Shown: positions 7,913 through 14,982 of the stretch, piece by piece
How positions within the stretch are numbered: the stretch's first letter is position 1
Layout: every line of letters starts with the position of its first letter
NCBI GenBank assembly: GCA_946534345.1
Contig: CAMNCL010000001.1
Span: 16,485-80,484 of the forward strand
Length of the DNA: 64,000 nucleotides
DNA from: an uncultured Bacillales bacterium
Lineage (GTDB): Bacteria; Bacillota_I; Bacilli_A; RF39; UBA660
Reading direction: 5' to 3'
Program-made: the position numbers and the translations under genes
The notes under the pieces: model-generated
Database searches by the model: none
What the model saw: only the letters and a program-made list of their open reading frames with translations
What the model was told of the DNA's origin: nothing

Positions 7913-7988
7913 GGGGCATTAGCTCAGCTGGGAGAGCGCCACGTTTGCACCGTGGAGGTCAGCGGTTCGATCCCGCTATGCTCCACCA
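7913..7988 (+). tRNA. tRNA-Ala (anticodon UGC), CCA encoded
   Basis: Cloverleaf folded by hand. Acceptor GGGGCAU/AUGCUCC with the G3:U70 Ala identity pair. Anticodon loop UUUGCAC. T-loop GGTTCGATCC. Confidence 0.95.
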
Positions 7989-7999
7989 TTTTGATTGTT

Positions 8000-8026
8000 A
8001 ATCGTTGGTAGACAACGATTTTTTTA
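8000..8026 (+). terminator. intrinsic terminator-like hairpin between the two tRNA genes
   Basis: AATCGTTG-GTAGA-CAACGATT followed by a T-run (8020-8025). Confidence 0.6.
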
Positions 8027-8037
8027 TTAAATAAAAA

Positions 8038-8111
8038 GCCGATATAGTTTAGTGGTAGAACAGGTCCTTGGTAAGGATCAGAGGTAAGTTCAATTCTTAC
8101 TTTCGGCACCA
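8038..8111 (+). tRNA. tRNA-Thr (anticodon GGU), CCA encoded
   Basis: Cloverleaf folded by hand. Acceptor GCCGAUA/UUUCGGC (one U-U mismatch). Anticodon stem GGUCC/GGAUC with loop UUGGUAA. T-arm GUAAG-UUCAAUU-CUUAC. Confidence 0.9.
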
Positions 8112-8235: not shown

Positions 8236-10596
8236 ATGAAAAAAATCACAACTTTATTAGTTTTACTATTTGTAATGTTTTTGCCGTTGTATGTTAATGC
8301 CGAATCAAAATATCTTTATGATGTATTAAAAAATGAAGCAGAAAAAGAAAATGGATTAGCCAAAGAATATACCGGAGAACATCATGATTCATTTACAAAA
8401 GAACCAACTCATAAGATATACCATTGGTATGCTGATAATGATGAAGAAATGAATAATATTGATGATAAAAATAATATAATTTTTGGTGGCTATTGTTGGA
8501 AGATGTTTCGTACTACTGATACTGGTGGAATAAAACTTGTTTACAACGGATTCCCTAGAAATAATAATTGTGTCGATTATTCTGGTAACAGTGATATGGA
8601 GATAGGAAATTTAATATGGGTTTCCGTTGCAGATTTCTTTTATTTTTCAACTGATTTTGATATAGATTCTAATACAAAAAAATTTGTAGCTAAAGGTGAT
8701 GTAAAAAAAGGAAGTGAATTAACTAACAAACTAGGTAGATATATGTTTCAAACTATGGATTTAAATGAAGCAAAGTCATCAATTTATTACATGATAGGAG
8801 ATCATCTAGGAATAGCTTTTTATTCTAACTATGGACTTAATAATAGTATTGGAACCAATGATATAAATTCAAATTTTCCAGAAACTTTATCCAATATAGG
8901 TTATTTAAATGGTAACAAATATCCTATTAGTAATATGTATGCAGATGAAACAAATAATTACTCAACTTCAAGTAATACTTTTGGATATAGTGATTCATAT
9001 GAATTTAGAGATGGATATTATTATCTTCAAAATCCTATAATGATGCAATATAAAGATATTAAAGATAATATAGAGTTTTTAAAAGGTAAATATTCATGTT
9101 TTAATTCAAGCAATAATTGTAATGTTCTATCTTATGTTCAAGGTGGTAATGAAACTAACTATACTAAAGTTAACGTTGCATTAAATAAGTACACTTATTA
9201 TAAAAATGCAAATTATAGTGATGGTAAATATCACCTTAGTGGTGGTAGTATATCATTTGAAGATATTAAAAATAATTTAAATCTATGGGATCAATTTGGG
9301 TTCTTTTGTAATGATGGAACTGCAGAGTGTGAGAATGTATCATATATTTATAATTTGTCAGAAACCCAATCTATGGGGAGAACCTATCACCATATGAATT
9401 CAATTTTATTAACTGGAGGCGACAAACCATCAGATGTTATTGAAAACATAACCAGTGATAACAGTGGTGATTCTTATACAAAAAAAGTAATGGATTTATG
9501 GTATCAGCGTTATTTTAATGGACAGTCTAATAATTTAGAAGATGTGATTTACTGCAACAATAGACAACTAGATAGTAAAGGTAATTTAGATGAAACTGGA
9601 ACAATAACTGATGAGATAGTGATTAAACCTAATATGAGTTTAAAATGTCCTAGAATAAAAGATAGTTTATCAGTAAGTAATGAAGAAGCCAAATTAGACT
9701 ATCCTGTTGGATTGATGAATCTTGCGGAGGCTAGTATGATGGGCAACTTAGATGGAAGTTATCAGAGTTCATTTTTGATGGATGCATATGGAATTGGAAA
9801 GAATATTTCTTTTAATGAAATAATATATGAGTACCCTTCTTATAAAACAAAACTTGGAACAGGCAGTCGTAATAAACTTAAACCTGTAGTAGCATTAAAA
9901 AAAGATTCTACATACTCTTCAGGCTTAGGAACAAAAGAAAATCCTTATATATTTGATAAGATAGTATCGAGATATAAAATAAATGTAGAAATAGAAAACA
10001 AGACAGAGGATTTCAATGTAAATATAAATGATATGTCACAGGTAGAGTATAATGAAGAAGTTTCTTTTAAAGTAACACCTATAAAAGGATATAAAGTAAC
10101 TGATTTAAAAATAATTGATTCAGATAATAATGAAATTGATTATGAGATGATTGATAATAGGAATTATAAATTTATAATGCCTGCATCAGATGTCACAATA
10201 ATGCCTTCATATGAAAAAGTAAAAAATAGTGTAACTGTCGTTGATAATAAGAATACAAAAGAATTAATAATTGAAGTAAATGATTCTAAGGCAGTAATGT
10301 ATGAAGATACTGTAAGATTTAGAGTAACTCCTGAAGAAGGATATGAAGTAGATAAGATTGATATTACAGATGAAGAGAAAAACAAAATAAAATATAAGAA
10401 TACGACTGTTAAGAATGAATATGAATTTAAGATGCCTGATACAGATGTTACTATTGATCCAACTTATAGAAAGATAGATACAAATAATATAAATAATAAT
10501 CCTAATACTAGTCGTAATATATTTTATATAATTCTAGTTATTATATGTATAGCTACTAGTTATATATTTATTAGAAAGAGAAAACACAAATTTTAA
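8236..10596 (+). CDS. large secreted or cell-surface protein: signal peptide, unknown N-terminal region, two tandem ~85-aa beta-rich repeats, and a C-terminal NPNTS + TM + basic tail
   Basis: Signal peptide MKKITTLLVLLFVMFLPLYVNA. C-terminus NNNPNTSRNIFYIILVIICIATSYIFIRKRKHKF. Repeats described in the next feature. Confidence 0.7.
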   Translation: MKKITTLLVLLFVMFLPLYVNAESKYLYDVLKNEAEKENGLAKEYTGEHHDSFTKEPTHKIYHWYADNDEEMNNIDDKNNIIFGGYCWKMFRTTDTGGIKLVYNGFPRNNNCVDYSGNSDMEIGNLIWVSVADFFYFSTDFDIDSNTKKFVAKGDVKKGSELTNKLGRYMFQTMDLNEAKSSIYYMIGDHLGIAFYSNYGLNNSIGTNDINSNFPETLSNIGYLNGNKYPISNMYADETNNYSTSSNTFGYSDSYEFRDGYYYLQNPIMMQYKDIKDNIEFLKGKYSCFNSSNNCNVLSYVQGGNETNYTKVNVALNKYTYYKNANYSDGKYHLSGGSISFEDIKNNLNLWDQFGFFCNDGTAECENVSYIYNLSETQSMGRTYHHMNSILLTGGDKPSDVIENITSDNSGDSYTKKVMDLWYQRYFNGQSNNLEDVIYCNNRQLDSKGNLDETGTITDEIVIKPNMSLKCPRIKDSLSVSNEEAKLDYPVGLMNLAEASMMGNLDGSYQSSFLMDAYGIGKNISFNEIIYEYPSYKTKLGTGSRNKLKPVVALKKDSTYSSGLGTKENPYIFDKIVSRYKINVEIENKTEDFNVNINDMSQVEYNEEVSFKVTPIKGYKVTDLKIIDSDNNEIDYEMIDNRNYKFIMPASDVTIMPSYEKVKNSVTVVDNKNTKELIIEVNDSKAVMYEDTVRFRVTPEEGYEVDKIDITDEEKNKIKYKNTTVKNEYEFKMPDTDVTIDPTYRKIDTNNINNNPNTSRNIFYIILVIICIATSYIFIRKRKHKF
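9970..10475 (+). repeat. tandem duplicated protein domain (2 x ~85 aa) inside the surface protein
   Basis: The two copies align by eye: ...VSFKVTPIKGYKVTDLKIIDSDNNEIDYEMIDNRNYKFIMPASDVTIMPSYEKV and ...VRFRVTPEEGYEVDKIDITDEEKNKIKYKNTTVKNEYEFKMPDTDVTIDPTYRKI. Confidence 0.75.
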
Positions 10597-10622
10597 GAAG
10601 AGAAAAAACTCTTCTTTTTTTT
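10595..10622 (+). terminator. intrinsic terminator
   Basis: AAGAAGAG-AAAAAA-CTCTTCTT followed by T6. Confidence 0.75.
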
Positions 10623-10675
10623 GGATAAATATTTAGAACTGTTAATAATAAGAATAGGAGGTGAAAGTAATATAA

Positions 10676-12748
10676 GTGAAAGTAGTTCTTCAGGATGGTA
10701 TTAAAGATTGTGGTATTTGTTCCCTTTTATCTATTATTAGATATTATGGAGGAGAAGTATCTAAAGAATATTTAAGAGAGATTACTAATACTACTAAAGA
10801 TGGTGTATCTTTATATAATCTTATTGAAGGTGCTAAAATAATTGGCTTTGAAGCAGAAGGGTTATCTGGACAAATAGAAAATATAGAAGAAAATAACTTA
10901 CCCTGTATAGCTCATTTTGTTGTGAATAAGAGTTATAAGCATTTTGTAGTTTTATATGAGATTAATAAAAAGAAATCCCTTGTTACTTTAATGGATCCTG
11001 CTAAAGGTAAAAAAGTAATATCTATTTCAGAATTCAACTTATTATCAAGTAATAATTATATATTCTTAAAACCTATTAAAACATTACCAATAATGCAGAA
11101 GAAAAATATAATTTATAAAAGTATAATTAATTTGTTTAAAACAAATAAAAAACTATTATTCTCAATTGTTTTATTAACATTCTCATATTTCATTATTAAT
11201 ATTCTCACATCTTTTCATTTTAAATACATACTAGAATACGCTATTAAATATAAAATAACTAAGAGTATATATTATTTAAGTATAATTATGATAGTATTTT
11301 ATTTCCTAAAAAATATAAGTAATTTATTACGTAATATTTTACTTAGTAAATGGACTATGCTCTTTGATAATGAAATAACTAATAATACTTATAAGCAATT
11401 ACTTTTACTTCCATATTTATATTATAAAAATAGAACTACTGGTGAAGTTATTTCTAGATTTAGAGATTTAAATACTATTAGAAGTTTTATTAATAGATTC
11501 TTCTGCATTATTTCTACTGATTTAATAAGCATTATAATATTTATAGTTATAATGCTTAAATATCAGTATTTATTAACTCTTTATATTCTTATTCCTTCTT
11601 TTATATTAGTTATATATCAATTTATTATTAGTTCTAAAAAGAAAAAGAATATTAAGAATATTAGTAATAGAGAAGATATAATTAATTCTTATTTAATTCA
11701 AGGTATCAGTAATGTTGATACTATAAAAGGTAGTCATCTAGAGAAACGTTTGATTGATAAATTTTCATATAGTTATAAATCCTTTTTAGAAGCAATTTAT
11801 TCTTATAATAGTTTATTAGAAAGATATTATTTTAATAAGAATGTTTTAAGTGATATTTCTTTATTAATATTATTTGGGCTGGGTTCTTATTATGTTATTG
11901 ATGGTAATTTATCTATTAATAATTTAATTATATTTCATTTGTTTTATTCTTATTTTAATTCTAGTTTTTTTAATATAATAAGTATTTTAGAAGAATATAA
12001 TTCTTTTAAAGTTGCTTTAAATAGAGTAGAAGAAATATTTATGATTAATAAAGATGATTTTAAGAATAATTATTTTTATTTATCTTTTACTTTAGATGGA
12101 GATATTATTTATAATAATTTATCTTATAAACTAGGTAGTAAGTATTTATTTAAAGATTTAAATCTTCATATTAATCGTGGACAGAAGATTTTATTAAGTG
12201 GAGAAAGCGGTTGTGGTAAAAGTACTTTAATGAAGATGTTATTGAGATATATTGAGGTTGAATATAATACTATTAAAATAGCTGATATTGATATTAATCA
12301 TTATCATTTAGAAAACATTAGATCAAATATTACTTATGTTACAGGTAATGAATACTTATTTACTGATACTATTAGAAATAATATTCTATTGTATAAAGAT
12401 TATACTGAAGAAGATTTCTTTGAAGTATGTAGGATATGTTTAGTAGATGATATTGTGAAAAATACTAGTAATAATTATGATGCTTTAATAGAAGAAAATG
12501 GCTTTAATTTTAGTAACGGAGAAAAACAGAGAATTATTTTGGCAAGAAGTATTATTAAGAAGTCTAATATTTATATTTTTGATGAAGCTTTGGCGGGGAT
12601 TGATATTAATAGAGAAAAGAAAATACTTGAAAACGTTTTTAGTTATTTAAGTGATAAGACAGTAATAGTAATATCTCATAGATTTAATAATAAGAAGTTA
12701 TTTGATAGAGTATTAAAACTTGATAAAGGTTGTATTTATGAAAGTTAG
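10676..12748 (+). CDS. peptidase-containing ABC transporter (PCAT/AMS type): C39 double-glycine leader peptidase + ABC membrane domain + ATPase
   Basis: GTG start. C39 triad candidates: QDGIKDCGICS (Cys), HFVVLY (His), MDPAKG (Asp). TMD motif TGEVISRFRDLNTIRSF. NBD motifs: Walker A GESGCGKST, Walker B IYIFDEA, H-loop ISHR. Atypical Q-loop and signature (see findings). Confidence 0.9.
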   Translation: MKVVLQDGIKDCGICSLLSIIRYYGGEVSKEYLREITNTTKDGVSLYNLIEGAKIIGFEAEGLSGQIENIEENNLPCIAHFVVNKSYKHFVVLYEINKKKSLVTLMDPAKGKKVISISEFNLLSSNNYIFLKPIKTLPIMQKKNIIYKSIINLFKTNKKLLFSIVLLTFSYFIINILTSFHFKYILEYAIKYKITKSIYYLSIIMIVFYFLKNISNLLRNILLSKWTMLFDNEITNNTYKQLLLLPYLYYKNRTTGEVISRFRDLNTIRSFINRFFCIISTDLISIIIFIVIMLKYQYLLTLYILIPSFILVIYQFIISSKKKKNIKNISNREDIINSYLIQGISNVDTIKGSHLEKRLIDKFSYSYKSFLEAIYSYNSLLERYYFNKNVLSDISLLILFGLGSYYVIDGNLSINNLIIFHLFYSYFNSSFFNIISILEEYNSFKVALNRVEEIFMINKDDFKNNYFYLSFTLDGDIIYNNLSYKLGSKYLFKDLNLHINRGQKILLSGESGCGKSTLMKMLLRYIEVEYNTIKIADIDINHYHLENIRSNITYVTGNEYLFTDTIRNNILLYKDYTEEDFFEVCRICLVDDIVKNTSNNYDALIEENGFNFSNGEKQRIILARSIIKKSNIYIFDEALAGIDINREKKILENVFSYLSDKTVIVISHRFNNKKLFDRVLKLDKGCIYES

Positions 12749-13145
12749 GAATTATGAGAAGAAAGATATGATTATATTTTTTATGATTCTATTATTAATA
12801 ATTGAAATAATAGTAGTAGTAATTTTATTAACTGTTAAGATAGAAAAATATCAAATAGTATCAGGAATTGTGATTAAAGATAATTTGGCTTTAGTAGTTG
12901 TTTCCTCTGATGAAAGAAGAATTATTTATAGTAATAAAATATTATATTTAAATAATCATAAATATAAATATGAAATAGTTGAAGATAGAGGCAAAGTATT
13001 AAAAAAAGATGATGGTTATTATCAATTAGTATTAAAGTTTAAATTTAATAAGAAATACAAAGTTAATGATTTATTAGAAATAGTTTTTGTTAAAGAAAAA
13101 ATGTACTTGATTGAAATATTCAAGATTATTTGGGAAGGTGATTAG
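12738..13145 (+). CDS. small single-pass membrane protein (135 aa); possible mini accessory (HlyD-like barrel remnant) or immunity protein
   Basis: ATG at 12738 overlaps the PCAT stop. The track's TTG at 12720 is less likely. N-terminal TM MIIFFMILLLIIEIIVVVILLTV, then a beta-rich soluble part. Confidence 0.55.
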   Translation: MKVRNYEKKDMIIFFMILLLIIEIIVVVILLTVKIEKYQIVSGIVIKDNLALVVVSSDERRIIYSNKILYLNNHKYKYEIVEDRGKVLKKDDGYYQLVLKFKFNKKYKVNDLLEIVFVKEKMYLIEIFKIIWEGD

Positions 13146-13296
13146 TATTAGTAGAATAAGTGAAGAAAAGTTAGAGAAGATAAAAGGAGGAGCTACTGTA
13201 ACAGTATGGACTGGTATTGCGATAGCTTCTATAATTATTTTCTTATCCGGTGTAATCGATGGGTTAATTAATCCAGGAGGATGTACTAGTGAATAG
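13138..13296 (+). CDS. double-glycine leader peptide A (bacteriocin-like precursor); mature form predicted ATVTVWTGIAIASIIIFLSGVIDGLINPGGCTSE
   Basis: Leader ...SRISEEKLEKIKGG fits the LSxxELxxIxGG consensus. Start uncertain: GTG 13138, ATT 13147 or the track's TTG 13111. Hydrophobic mature part with GVIDG. Confidence 0.7.
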   Translation: MISISRISEEKLEKIKGGATVTVWTGIAIASIIIFLSGVIDGLINPGGCTSE

Positions 13297-13462
13297 AATT
13301 AGTGATGATAAATTAGATAATATAACTGGAGGTAATACTACTGTTAATGGGCCTATTATTAATGCAATTGTGAATGTAATTAATCTACTAAGAGATGCTG
13401 GTTATAGTATTGGTTCGGGCTTAAGAAGAATAGGCGAAAACAAGATGTGTCCACTAGAATAA
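13289..13462 (+). CDS. double-glycine leader peptide B (57 aa, not in ORF track); mature form predicted NTTVNGPIINAIVNVINLLRDAGYSIGSGLRRIGENKMCPLE
   Basis: GTG 13289 lies 8 nt after AGGAGG (13275-13280) and overlaps the end of peptide A by 8 nt. Leader MNRISDDKLDNITGG. TAA stop at 13460-13462. Amphipathic mature part with GYSIG. Confidence 0.7.
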   Translation: MNRISDDKLDNITGGNTTVNGPIINAIVNVINLLRDAGYSIGSGLRRIGENKMCPLE

Positions 13463-13514
13463 AGTAAAAATATTATAAATAAAAGCTATTTTTGTTGATA
13501 TTTCTTAAAAAAAC

Positions 13515-13543
13515 TTGAAAAACAAATAATATTTTGTTATAAT
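13515..13543 (+). promoter_or_regulatory. sigma-A promoter with extended -10 for rpsU
   Basis: TTGAAA 13515-13520, 17-nt spacer, TGtTATAAT (13535-13543). Confidence 0.65.
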
Positions 13544-13783: not shown

Positions 13784-13812
13784 AAGTAGTATCTTTTAGA
13801 TACTACTTTTTG
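13784..13812 (+). terminator. intrinsic terminator after rpsU
   Basis: AAGTAGTATCT-TTT-AGATACTACTT followed by a T-run. Confidence 0.75.
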
Positions 13813-13851: not shown

Positions 13852-14289
13852 ATGGTAGAACAATTAGAAAAAGATATGATTGAAGCAATGAAGAATAAAG
13901 AAAAAGAAAGATTAACAGTAATTAGAGCTGTAAAAGCTGGTTTAAAACAAGAACAAATCGATCATAAAAAAGAAATTAATGATGATTTACTAATTGAAGT
14001 AGTTAGTAGACAAATTAAAATGAGAAAAGAATCAATTGCTGAATTTGAAAAGGGTAATAGACAAGATTTAGTAGATCAAACACAAGCAGAAATTGATATT
14101 TTAATGAAGTATTTACCTGAACAATTATCTGAAGAAGAAGTATTAAAAGTAATTGATGAAATATTTGAAGAAGTTAAACCAGAAAGTAAAAAAGATATGG
14201 GTAGAGTAATGAAAGAAGCTAATGCCAGATTAAAAGGAAAGGCTGACATGAAAACTGTTTCAAGTATTATTCAAGAAAAATTACAATAA
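13852..14289 (+). CDS. yqeY: GatB/YqeY domain protein
   Basis: ATG 13852 after AGGAG (the track start at 13810 is an upstream extension). ...AMK.KEKERL.VIRAVKA......LPEQLSEEEV... typical of YqeY. Follows rpsU as in Bacillus. Confidence 0.85.
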   Translation: MVEQLEKDMIEAMKNKEKERLTVIRAVKAGLKQEQIDHKKEINDDLLIEVVSRQIKMRKESIAEFEKGNRQDLVDQTQAEIDILMKYLPEQLSEEEVLKVIDEIFEEVKPESKKDMGRVMKEANARLKGKADMKTVSSIIQEKLQ

Positions 14290-14310
14290 GCATCTATGAT
14301 GCTTATTTTT
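14288..14310 (+). terminator. intrinsic terminator after yqeY
   Basis: AAGCATC-TAT-GATGCTT followed by ATTTTT. Confidence 0.65.
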
Positions 14311-14370
14311 AATTGAAAAGCAATGAAAAAAATAGTACAATAGATATGAATAGAAGGAAGGAGTGATACT

Positions 14371-14982
14371 ATGATAAAGCCGCTTTCTAATACAATTCAA
14401 CAAGTTATTAATTTTACATGGCCAATGGTAATTATTTCGGTTGTTATTATGGTATCATGTAGAATTAGTTATTTAATAAAGAATAAAGAAAAAGTTGTTT
14501 TATATAAAGAACTAATGATGTTAATATTTGCAGTATACATTCTATGTTTATTCCAAGTAGTAACATTTCAAGATGATACATCTTGGGCAAGTAATAACTT
14601 TATACCATTTAAAGAAATATTAAGATATAATATATCTAGTAGGTTGTTTATAAAGAATGTTTTAGGTAATATGATTATGTTTTTACCTTTTGGATTCTTT
14701 GTTAGTTATTTTTTAAAATCAGAAAAAATATATATGCCAGTTATTTTAACAATAATTGCTTCTCTTTCAATTGAACTTGTTCAATTAGCAATTGGAAGAG
14801 TATTTGATGTAGATGATATTATTCTTAACTTATTAGGTGGAATAATGGGATATTTTATCTATAGTGTTATTAGAATAATAGGTGAAGGATTACCAGGATT
14901 TTGTCGAAAAGATTGGTTCTTAAATATACTAACAGTTTTATTATTTGCTGGATTAGTCACAATGATTATAATGATTTTATAG
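14371..14982 (+). CDS. VanZ-like family membrane protein
   Basis: Polytopic. NFIPFKEI, GNMIMFLPFGFF and ELVQLAIGRVFDVDDIILNLLGG resemble the VanZ family. Confidence 0.7.
   Translation: MIKPLSNTIQQVINFTWPMVIISVVIMVSCRISYLIKNKEKVVLYKELMMLIFAVYILCLFQVVTFQDDTSWASNNFIPFKEILRYNISSRLFIKNVLGNMIMFLPFGFFVSYFLKSEKIYMPVILTIIASLSIELVQLAIGRVFDVDDIILNLLGGIMGYFIYSVIRIIGEGLPGFCRKDWFLNILTVLLFAGLVTMIIMIL

Follow-up and report, generated by a model that had tools for sequence, protein, structure and literature searches.

Class IIb (two-peptide) bacteriocins are specified by adjacent genes for two precursors with double-glycine (GG) leaders of 15-30 residues, together with a dedicated ATP-binding cassette (ABC) transporter and an immunity gene in the same operon, and GxxxG motifs occur in all known two-peptide bacteriocins (PMC2850506). 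The accessory protein of class IIb systems has an unclear role, possibly in immunity and/or secretion (PMC2850506), and pairs of an exporter and an accessory protein export the GG peptides of their own operon (PMC7018657). A compact cassette that shares several of these features is present in a 64,000-nucleotide stretch of DNA (the window; contig CAMNCL010000001.1, positions 16,485 to 80,484) from an uncultured Bacillales bacterium. It encodes a peptidase-containing ABC transporter (PCAT), a 135-aa membrane protein (p135) and two short GG-leader peptide precursors (pep1 and pep2). Judged from its sequence features, the cassette probably (at roughly 60%) specifies a class IIb-like two-peptide bacteriocin that would be cleaved in a leader-dependent manner and exported via the PCAT, with p135 as a minimal partner. 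Coordinates are window positions throughout, and the loci compared with the window carry numbers between L001 and L058.

The four genes overlap on the plus strand and are arranged in the order PCAT (10676-12748, 690 aa, GTG start, AGGAGG at 10656-10661), p135 (12738-13145, 135 aa, ATG start), pep1 (13138-13296, 52 aa, GTG start) and pep2 (13289-13462, 57 aa, GTG start), with overlaps of 11, 8 and 8 nt as read from the sequence. The Shine-Dalgarno (SD) sequence of pep2, AGGAGG at 13275-13280, lies within pep1 codons, 8 nt before GTG 13289. An initial annotation, made from the letters of the window, had placed all four open reading frames (ORFs) correctly, including the 8-nt overlap of the two short GG-leader frames and the GTG start of the 57-aa second peptide, and two start codons have since been refined. 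For p135, the automatic ORF of 141 aa begins at TTG; since the relatives all begin MKVRNYEKK, the real start is the ATG at 12738. For pep1, GTG 13138 is assigned because its relatives begin MVKISKIS... and because public gene calls hold the same 52-aa product.

Pep1 is composed of an 18-aa leader (MISISRISEEKLEKIKGG, 13138-13191) and a mature part of 34 aa (ATVTVWTGIAIASIIIFLSGVIDGLINPGGCTSE, predicted mass 3390 Da), and pep2 of a 15-aa leader (MNRISDDKLDNITGG, 13289-13333) and a mature part of 42 aa (NTTVNGPIINAIVNVINLLRDAGYSIGSGLRRIGENKMCPLE, predicted mass 4497 Da). Leader positions -4, -7, -12 and -15 are implicated in recognition by PCATs (PMC7018657), and all of these are occupied by hydrophobic residues, namely I, L, I and I in pep1 and I, L, I and M in pep2. 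Mature pep1 is essentially one hydrophobic, transmembrane (TM) helix with a grand average of hydropathy (GRAVY) of 1.24, a GxxxG motif that reads GVIDG and a single Cys. Mature pep2 is amphipathic, with a hydrophobic moment (µH) of up to 0.65, the GxxxG motif GYSIG and, again, a single Cys. The two GxxxG motifs, pointed out in the initial annotation, are conserved in every relative read, and their glycines are invariant in the family alignments (G38 and G42 in both peptides). In the pep1 family, an invariant ...F.SG(V/I)(I/F)xG... is followed by NP..C and then by a variable tail of 1-8 residues; the pep2 family shows an invariant AGxxxG, then RRI.E...C[PS][LIM]x, the Cys always being followed by exactly three residues. 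The description of one peptide as hydrophobic and the other as amphipathic thus stands, while that of the amphipathic one as cationic does not: the net charge of the window's mature peptides is -2 for pep1 and just +1 for pep2, with family means of -1.3 and -0.1.

About 30 independent loci, drawn from a genome collection, contig look-ups and a metagenome scan, encode both peptides next to the exporter and its partner, and nearly all of these loci keep the order PCAT-p135-pep1-pep2. The sources include cattle rumen, goat jejunum, human gut and sloth gut. A search with pep2 yielded 41 clusters of 56-58 aa (one of 54 aa) at 61-100% identity, in which 16 positions are invariant, among them GG, GPIIN, AG...G, RR, E and CP; one of these clusters carries a name, 'bacteriocin [Bacilli bacterium]' (MBR2678121.1, NCBI). 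Both mature peptides are under purifying selection: among six or seven close loci, the ratio of nonsynonymous to synonymous polymorphism (pN/pS) is 0.18-0.19 for pep1, 0.25 for mature pep2 and 0.40 for the pep2 leader, compared with 0.17 for the PCAT, 0.10 for YqeY and 0 for ribosomal protein S21. A chance origin of both small ORFs, given AT-rich DNA, might be suggested by their shortness (52 and 57 aa, one of them below usual ORF cutoffs) and by GTG starts, which are weak evidence of a gene; given the invariant GG, GxxxG and Cys across about 30 independent loci, a pN/pS of about 0.2 and the presence of the same products among the calls of public assemblies, this explanation has a negligible probability and is discarded.

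The exporter contains the Pfam domains Peptidase_C39 (PF03412, 2.6e-30), ABC_membrane (PF00664, 6.1e-30) and ABC_tran (PF00005, 4.6e-24), the three that the initial annotation had proposed to search for, in the order C39 peptidase (aa 2-133), ABC transmembrane domain and ATPase. Among solved structures, it matches PCAT1 of C. thermocellum best (4ry2, E 2e-87 over the full length); the two share their architecture, and the catalytic residues Q6, C12, H89 and D107 align. Pneumococcal ComA is the next solved relative. The Cys/His/Asp triad had already been recognized as intact, and its assignment is refined here in that the catalytic His sits in the second HFVV motif (KHFVVLY) and not in the first. 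The triad motifs are kept in 15 of the 15 related-locus PCATs picked up by a motif scan. The ATPase motifs are equally readable (Walker A GESGCGKST, signature FSNGEKQR, Walker B IYIFDEA, H-loop ISHR). A score of 351.5 bits against a cutoff of 523.85 on TIGR01193, along with missed cutoffs on the other curated PCAT models, marks the protein as a divergent PCAT member. When the genome collection was scanned with the PCAT, two true relatives (L001 and L002) were recovered, the other 23 loci being generic ABC ATPases; the exact sequence is present in a protein collection, and an exact contig look-up gave no match. The GG-leader cargos are encoded 0.4 kb downstream of the gene. By homology with its solved relatives, we infer that the exporter cleaves leaders after Gly-Gly and exports the cargo. 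PCAT1 itself is not known to need an accessory protein and has one cargo of about 90 aa, whereas the exporter described here has a conserved partner and two short cargos.

The comparison with class IIb systems such as lactococcin G, plantaricin EF/JK and lactobin A/cerein 7B reveals likeness in the paired, adjacent peptide genes, the GG leaders (18 and 15 aa), the dedicated C39-ABC exporter and the mature peptides of 34 and 42 aa, which are helical, hydrophobic or amphipathic and carry one GxxxG each, a helix-helix motif for which AxxxA or SxxxS can stand in. In deeper relatives of the locus, a small membrane ORF also lies directly after the peptides, at the position of an immunity gene. The differences are that the exporter and its partner come first in the operon, that the immunity candidate is deleted in this genome, that each peptide has a conserved C-terminal Cys and that pep2 has no known family. 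At the level of curated models, 16 of 19 members of the pep1 family match NF038034 and 12 of 19 match TIGR03949 (NCBIfam; class IIb bacteriocin, lactobin A/cerein 7B family) at E <= 0.1, and the 21.5-bit cutoff of the latter is passed by three pep1 relatives (L034 with 29.1, L052 with 22.1 and L038 with 22.0 bits). The pep1 of the window has no TIGR03949 match at E <= 0.1, and the pep2 family matches the leader model alone. Sub-threshold matches of the window peptides point to Bacteriocin_IIc, the lactococcin G-beta/enterocin 1071B family and the GG-leader domain. Neither mature peptide was recognized as a known family in the initial annotation, and both peptides of the window fail all curated bacteriocin models. 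The proposal of a two-peptide bacteriocin-like system retains its core, namely two GG-leader GxxxG peptides and an intact PCAT, and loses the cationic character and the shared C-terminal tag discussed below. Literature searches on inter-peptide disulfides in two-peptide bacteriocins, on GG-peptide mining in rumen bacteria or Erysipelotrichaceae and on PCAT genome mining yielded no description of this peptide family, no cultured producer and no published assay.

As a two-peptide bacteriocin, the cassette would operate in the following way. Four translationally coupled genes would make and export the peptide pair. By homology with PCAT1 and ComA, the C39 domain would bind the leaders and cut after Gly-Gly, and the ABC core would expel the 34-aa hydrophobic pep1 and the 42-aa amphipathic pep2, with p135 acting as the minimal exporter partner. 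Outside the cell, in analogy to class IIb bacteriocins, the peptides would pair helix-to-helix via their GxxxG motifs in the target membrane and make it leaky, and a Cys-Cys disulfide may lock the pair. An ancestral fifth small GxxxG membrane protein, deleted in this sub-lineage, would be the likely immunity factor. The same export route could serve secreted pheromones of the ComC or BlpC type with a sensor encoded elsewhere, as PCATs also export pheromones (PMC7018657). The strong conservation of the mature sequences is compatible with such a role, and a few family members give weak, sub-threshold matches to EntF induction-factor and ComC models; these matches, however, fall in the leader. 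A histidine kinase or response regulator is absent within about 10 kb on either side and from the gene lists of the related loci, which agrees with the initial annotation, as does the absence of a full-length HlyD accessory. Furthermore, very hydrophobic or amphipathic GxxxG peptides of 34 and 42 aa are unlike known GG-leader pheromones, and two different peptides are always co-inherited. A pheromone function is therefore very improbable.

The conserved Cys residues deserve separate consideration. The initial annotation had read the ends of both peptides as a common CxxE motif, possibly for a disulfide or as a recognition tag. The C-terminal Cys is indeed conserved in both families; the CxxE itself is a coincidence of this genome, because pep2 always has its Cys plus three residues while the tail after the pep1 Cys varies from 1 to 8. 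Part of the region is under double constraint: the pep1 codons CCA GGA GGA TGT (Pro-Gly-Gly-Cys, 13273-13284) contain the pep2 SD sequence AGGAGG and, in relatives, the pep2 Cys codon contributes to the ATG of the fifth ORF. Dual coding alone does not explain the pep1 PGGC and the pep2 Cys, since both persist where the overlaps are weak or absent. In particular, the idea that PGGC is kept merely as the SD sequence of pep2 was rejected, as the motif persists alongside weak SD sequences and the Cys codon lies outside the SD. By analogy, the two residues may lock pep1 and pep2 together as a disulfide heterodimer. A divergent, pep1-only variant of the cassette (L038, described below) that lacks both pep2 and the pep1 Cys fits such a pairing as a single case. 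On the other hand, a single Cys need not mean a disulfide, as lactococcin B needs its lone Cys in the reduced state, and the host organisms live in anoxic guts. Some pep1 relatives from the human gut have a second Cys. Two kinds of modification were also considered for these residues and dropped: S-glycosylation as in glycocins or an AviCys-type crosslink, because the operon and its flanks hold no glycosyltransferase, LanD-like or radical-SAM gene, and CaaX-like prenylation of pep2, in view of the lack of a prenyltransferase and the acidic tail, despite the invariant Cys plus three residues.

The small overlapping ORF with one TM helix that had been noted behind the exporter is confirmed and turns out to be no incidental frame: p135 is a constant exporter partner from a large family. 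It is a type II single-TM membrane protein with an N-in/C-out topology. The motif MKVRNYEKK lies on the cytoplasmic side, the TM helix comprises aa 3-32, and the ectodomain (34-123) resembles a beta-barrel, includes one helix and is followed by a terminal amphipathic helix (LIEIFKIIWEGD). The AlphaFold (AF2) models are confident, with a predicted local distance difference test (pLDDT) score of 87.5 (full protein) or 89.1 (ectodomain). Y6 and E7 of the cytoplasmic motif each occur in 90% or more of 41 distant members, and Y38 and the C-terminal helix IEIFKIIWEGD are conserved as well. A word-index search returned 88 relatives, every one unnamed, and an exhaustive profile search 337 cluster representatives at E <= 1e-3 (229 at E <= 1e-10), so that the family comprises at least 337 clusters at 50% identity. 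Among the 150 relatives listed, full-length members have about 120-150 aa, and shorter entries span part of the profile. The additions from a second profile search, run with a very diverse alignment (A3) against a set of 5.8 billion proteins, are likewise all unnamed. P135 matches no Pfam family, neither it nor the 41 distant relatives match a Pfam or NCBIfam HlyD model, and the profile has no match among PDB sequences. Foldseek searches with p135 gave nothing below E 1e-3 against the PDB and nothing meaningful against viral structures. The recurring sub-significant matches are HerA HAS-barrels and the barrels of BesA, MacA, AcrA, MexA and Spr0693; for the membrane-fusion proteins, probabilities are 0.8-0.94 and TM-scores 0.41-0.44, the HerA HAS-barrels score higher, and the TM-scores of all recurring matches span 0.41-0.48. 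The likeness of the modelled ectodomain to membrane-fusion-protein barrels is suggestive but below significance.

In ComAB, BlpAB, RtgAB and LcnCD, as here, the exporter is followed by a single-pass, N-in protein with an extracytoplasmic beta-rich domain. The accessories ComB, BlpB and LcnD are HlyD-like proteins of about 450 aa with a coiled-coil hairpin. In contrast, p135 has just 135 aa without any Pfam or HlyD match, and its models, which lack a coiled-coil hairpin, consist of a TM helix, a single small barrel and a helix at the C-terminus. Bacteriocin accessories of the PedC/Bta type have a thioredoxin fold with a CxxC motif, and p135, with zero Cys and no thioredoxin match, is not of this type. 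Its gene lies directly 3' of the PCAT gene in every locus, the mobile variant L038 included, which favours a role as transport partner. From this co-occurrence, the gene order, the topology and the barrel ectodomain, p135 is proposed to be a minimal exporter partner at the position of ComB/LcnD-type accessories. A possible parallel is found in Mycoplasma, where sub-cutoff matches of p135 relatives and of the exporter lead to two families with adjacent accession numbers. The window's p135 scores 15 bits (E 0.021) on NF045999 (MAG1140 family), for which the curated cutoff is 35 bits, and 18 of the 41 distant members match this model over its full 126 positions, with a best E of 2.5e-5 and all below the cutoff; the exporter scores 294 bits, again below the curated cutoff, on NF045998 (Mbov_0121 family peptidase-ABC transporter). 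Remote homology between p135 and the MAG1140 family is therefore plausible from sequence. The two Mycoplasma loci that were fetched (L020 and L022, translated with code 4) are ordinary ABC ATPases and not PCATs, and literature searches on Mbov_0121, MAG1140 and MG406 returned nothing relevant, with no published function for either Mycoplasma family.

The initial annotation found no immunity gene after the peptides. This is correct for the window and does not apply to the ancestral state. An intact fifth ORF of 34-59 aa is present in L033, L034, L035, L047, L049-L051 and L052-L057 (for example L033 1968-2108, L049 4702-4866 and L052 4706-4843). It begins inside pep2, 16 nt ahead of the stop codon (22 nt ahead in L035), usually opens with MS[FT]R[VL], and encodes one TM helix and an invariant GxxxG followed by LR. 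The window keeps just a six-codon remnant of this frame (GTG-MSTRIK-stop, 13447-13467, plus strand), recognized by comparison with the intact ORFs of relatives. In the window, L001, L002, L026, L028, L032 and L039-L046, the spacer between pep2 and rpsU is cut from about 234 to 90-190 nt. As the deeper relatives are intact and the window holds the remnant, the absence of an immunity gene represents a recent, secondary loss. Position, size and hydrophobicity make the fifth ORF a likely immunity factor. Alternatively, p135 could be the dedicated immunity protein and not a transport accessory. Like many immunity proteins, it evolves fast, and of all genes in the cassette it does so the fastest (identity to the window is 34-65%, compared with 47-85% for the PCAT); this genome has no other immunity candidate, and accessory proteins may take part in immunity (PMC2850506). 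Nevertheless, the p135 gene always comes straight after that of the exporter, with an overlap, and not after the peptide genes, its N-terminal Y6/E7 motif suggests docking on a cytoplasmic partner, and its topology and barrel ectodomain resemble exporter adaptors; in deeper relatives, immunity could be assigned to the fifth ORF instead. The weak matches of distant members to the MAG1140 family would point in the same direction if that family partners an exporter. A dedicated immunity function is thus unlikely, and p135 may contribute to self-protection in addition to its proposed part in export.

The chromosomal site of the cassette is unusually stable. Approximately 29 loci were read; with one exception, the cassette lies just 5' of rpsU wherever that flank is on the contig, with rpsU-yqeY(-yabP-yqfD)-vanZ-ybeY-dgkA-cdd-era downstream and mreCD and tRNA genes upstream. 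This position is kept even at 25-29% p135 identity (L035, L037 and L056). In addition to the PCAT and p135 values given above, identity to the window is 41-78% for pep1 and 40-70% for pep2, compared with 93-99% for the neighbouring S21 and 70-90% for YqeY. Because the position is fixed and these identities are lower, the cassette is inherited with the chromosome while evolving faster than its neighbours.

Three kinds of natural variant add to this picture. First, L038 (2939-5533) is a divergent cassette (p135 23% identical) whose contig also encodes KilA-N, ParA and ParB. It consists of PCAT, p135 and pep1 without pep2, and its pep1, which lacks the NP..C tail, has ...GVIEGLFRLK as its last residues; this locus is possibly a one-peptide variant carried by a plasmid. 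Second, in L030 (4291-6174), L031 and L058 (8291-10174), the gene of a 565-aa serine recombinase ends 12 nt before an intact pep2, and the 10 kb upstream of pep2 contain no PCAT, p135 or pep1. Instead, small ORFs and genes for a sortase, a signal peptidase, a surface protein and a reverse transcriptase are found there. An integrative element seems to have entered at the 3' end of pep1; its other junction was not found. Third, there is the loss of the fifth ORF described above. Scans of viral contigs with the p135 alignment, the p135 of L038 and the pep2 alignment were all negative, hence there is no sign of a phage origin.

Several of these observations weigh against a bacteriocin. Class IIb peptides typically carry a positive net charge, unlike the neutral to anionic pair described here, and the peptides of the window pass no curated bacteriocin model. 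The TIGR03949 signal of the pep1 relatives leans on the leader and the first part of the helix, as mature-only sequences match nothing. The genome keeps both peptides yet has lost the candidate immunity ORF, and the likeness between p135 and the barrels of membrane-fusion proteins falls short of significance (Foldseek without a match at E <1e-3; TM-scores of 0.43-0.48). Most bacteriocin loci are patchy, often plasmid-borne in the class IIb case, and fast-diversifying, unlike this locus, which combines purifying selection with one chromosomal site down to 25% p135 identity; such a fixed site across a deep lineage weakens the simple picture of an accessory weapon. Additionally, none of the approximately 30 loci stems from a cultured organism. 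The leading alternative is that the exported pair has a physiological role in the producer, for instance as a heterodimer embedded in the membrane, as a factor linked to the envelope or to sporulation, or as a former bacteriocin that has been domesticated, with the PCAT serving only as a leader-dependent route of secretion and insertion. Conservation of the same surroundings (...mreCD/tRNA - cassette - rpsU-yqeY-yabP-yqfD...) at 25-45% p135 identity, comparable purifying selection on exporter and mature peptides, a net charge at or below zero, retention of the peptides after loss of the immunity candidate and the nature of pep1 as essentially a single TM helix are all in line with such a role. 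A receptor or regulator gene is, however, missing nearby, paired GxxxG peptides behind a PCAT form the textbook class IIb arrangement, and pep1 relatives match a class IIb model. Moreover, at least one relative can dispense with the cassette, its PCAT-p135-pep1 part being replaced by the serine-recombinase element, and a plasmid-like copy such as L038 is expected of a competitive trait. A physiological role is consequently regarded as unlikely, though it deserves to be kept in mind, and the class IIb-like bacteriocin is preferred. A bolder version, which we regard as rather doubtful, combines three elements: a neutral or anionic disulfide-linked heterodimer, unprecedented for an unmodified two-peptide bacteriocin; p135 as the sole helper of the PCAT and a stripped-down, sequence-novel replacement of HlyD/ComB, maybe shared with Mycoplasma PCATs; and a near-core rpsU locus across a large clade of uncultured gut Bacilli. 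If the whole module has been kept at such a near-core site, its function would go beyond occasional warfare, for example to the killing of kin, to cannibalism or to membrane physiology.

While the general kind of system is known, new aspects are a widespread, unnamed 135-aa protein that would replace the ComB/HlyD-type accessory, a pep2 family without known relatives, a peptide pair that is neutral or anionic and conserves a Cys in both members, and the chromosomal fixation beside rpsU. If the peptides are active, they would constitute an unstudied bacteriocin family, widespread in uncultured Bacilli of the rumen and the human gut, with an unusual charge and a possible inter-peptide disulfide. 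P135 would define a new, minimal class of PCAT adaptors that is simpler than ComAB or HlyBD for structural work. The fixed position next to rpsU bears on the question of whether some 'bacteriocin' loci are conserved, housekeeping-like peptide systems. The loss of the fifth ORF, the plasmid-like pep1-only copy without Cys and the pep2 orphaned by a serine recombinase are natural variants with which the parts can be dissected.

The cassette is delimited upstream by the intrinsic terminator of a surface-protein gene (10595-10616, plus strand, 8-bp stem and T run), which has a counterpart hairpin with a T run at the equivalent position in relatives, and downstream by a strong rpsU promoter on the same strand (TTGAAA-17-TATAAT with TG, 13515-13543). 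The interval between pep2 and rpsU contains no terminator, the next one being located 3' of rpsU at 13784-13808. A weak sigma-70-like promoter candidate (TGGATA-16-AATAAT, 10622-10649, plus strand) precedes the PCAT gene; it is proposed from a consensus match, and promoter-like matches in the region are as numerous as expected from shuffled sequence. The AATAAT(A) -10-like box just 5' of the PCAT ribosome-binding site is kept in relatives. In the window, L001, L002, L026, L028, L032, L034, L035 and L038, an AATAATA or GAATAATA box is conserved about 8-12 nt before the AGGAGGTGA ribosome-binding site of the PCAT, and most PCAT genes of these nine sequences begin GTG AAA GT. No conserved -35 element was detected upstream of the PCAT start in these nine sequences. 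A sigma-H-type promoter, considered because a GAAT box recurs upstream in some relatives, was dropped as a consistent -35 element is absent. An Rfam scan of the window retrieved a T-box and two tRNAs only, none of them in the operon.

Upstream of the operon, the window carries valS with its T-box, radC, mreC, mreD, two tRNA genes and the surface-protein gene. The T-box leader (2283-2489, 120.5 bits) is located 5' of an HD-domain gene and valS, and the tRNA genes are tRNA-Ala(tgc) and tRNA-Thr(ggt) at 7913-8111. The surface protein (786 aa, 8236-10596), encoded between tRNA-Thr and the cassette, contains two divergent InlB B-repeat (Flg_new_2) domains between a signal peptide and a TM segment that anchors its C-terminus. 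Elsewhere, the same slot is occupied by a gene for a 588-aa coiled protein (L001) or for Ham1 (L026) or is empty (L002), and thus represents a variable insertion point. Downstream, yqeY is directly followed by a VanZ-like gene in the window (13852-14982), while the sporulation genes yabP and yqfD lie between the two in most relatives (L002, L026, L030, L032-L037 and L056); this genome may have lost both. Finally, L028 (6240-8647) is the only relative with an insertion between pep2 and rpsU, where two paralogous genes encode proteins of about 400 aa; each protein begins with a TM helix and is without a Pfam match.

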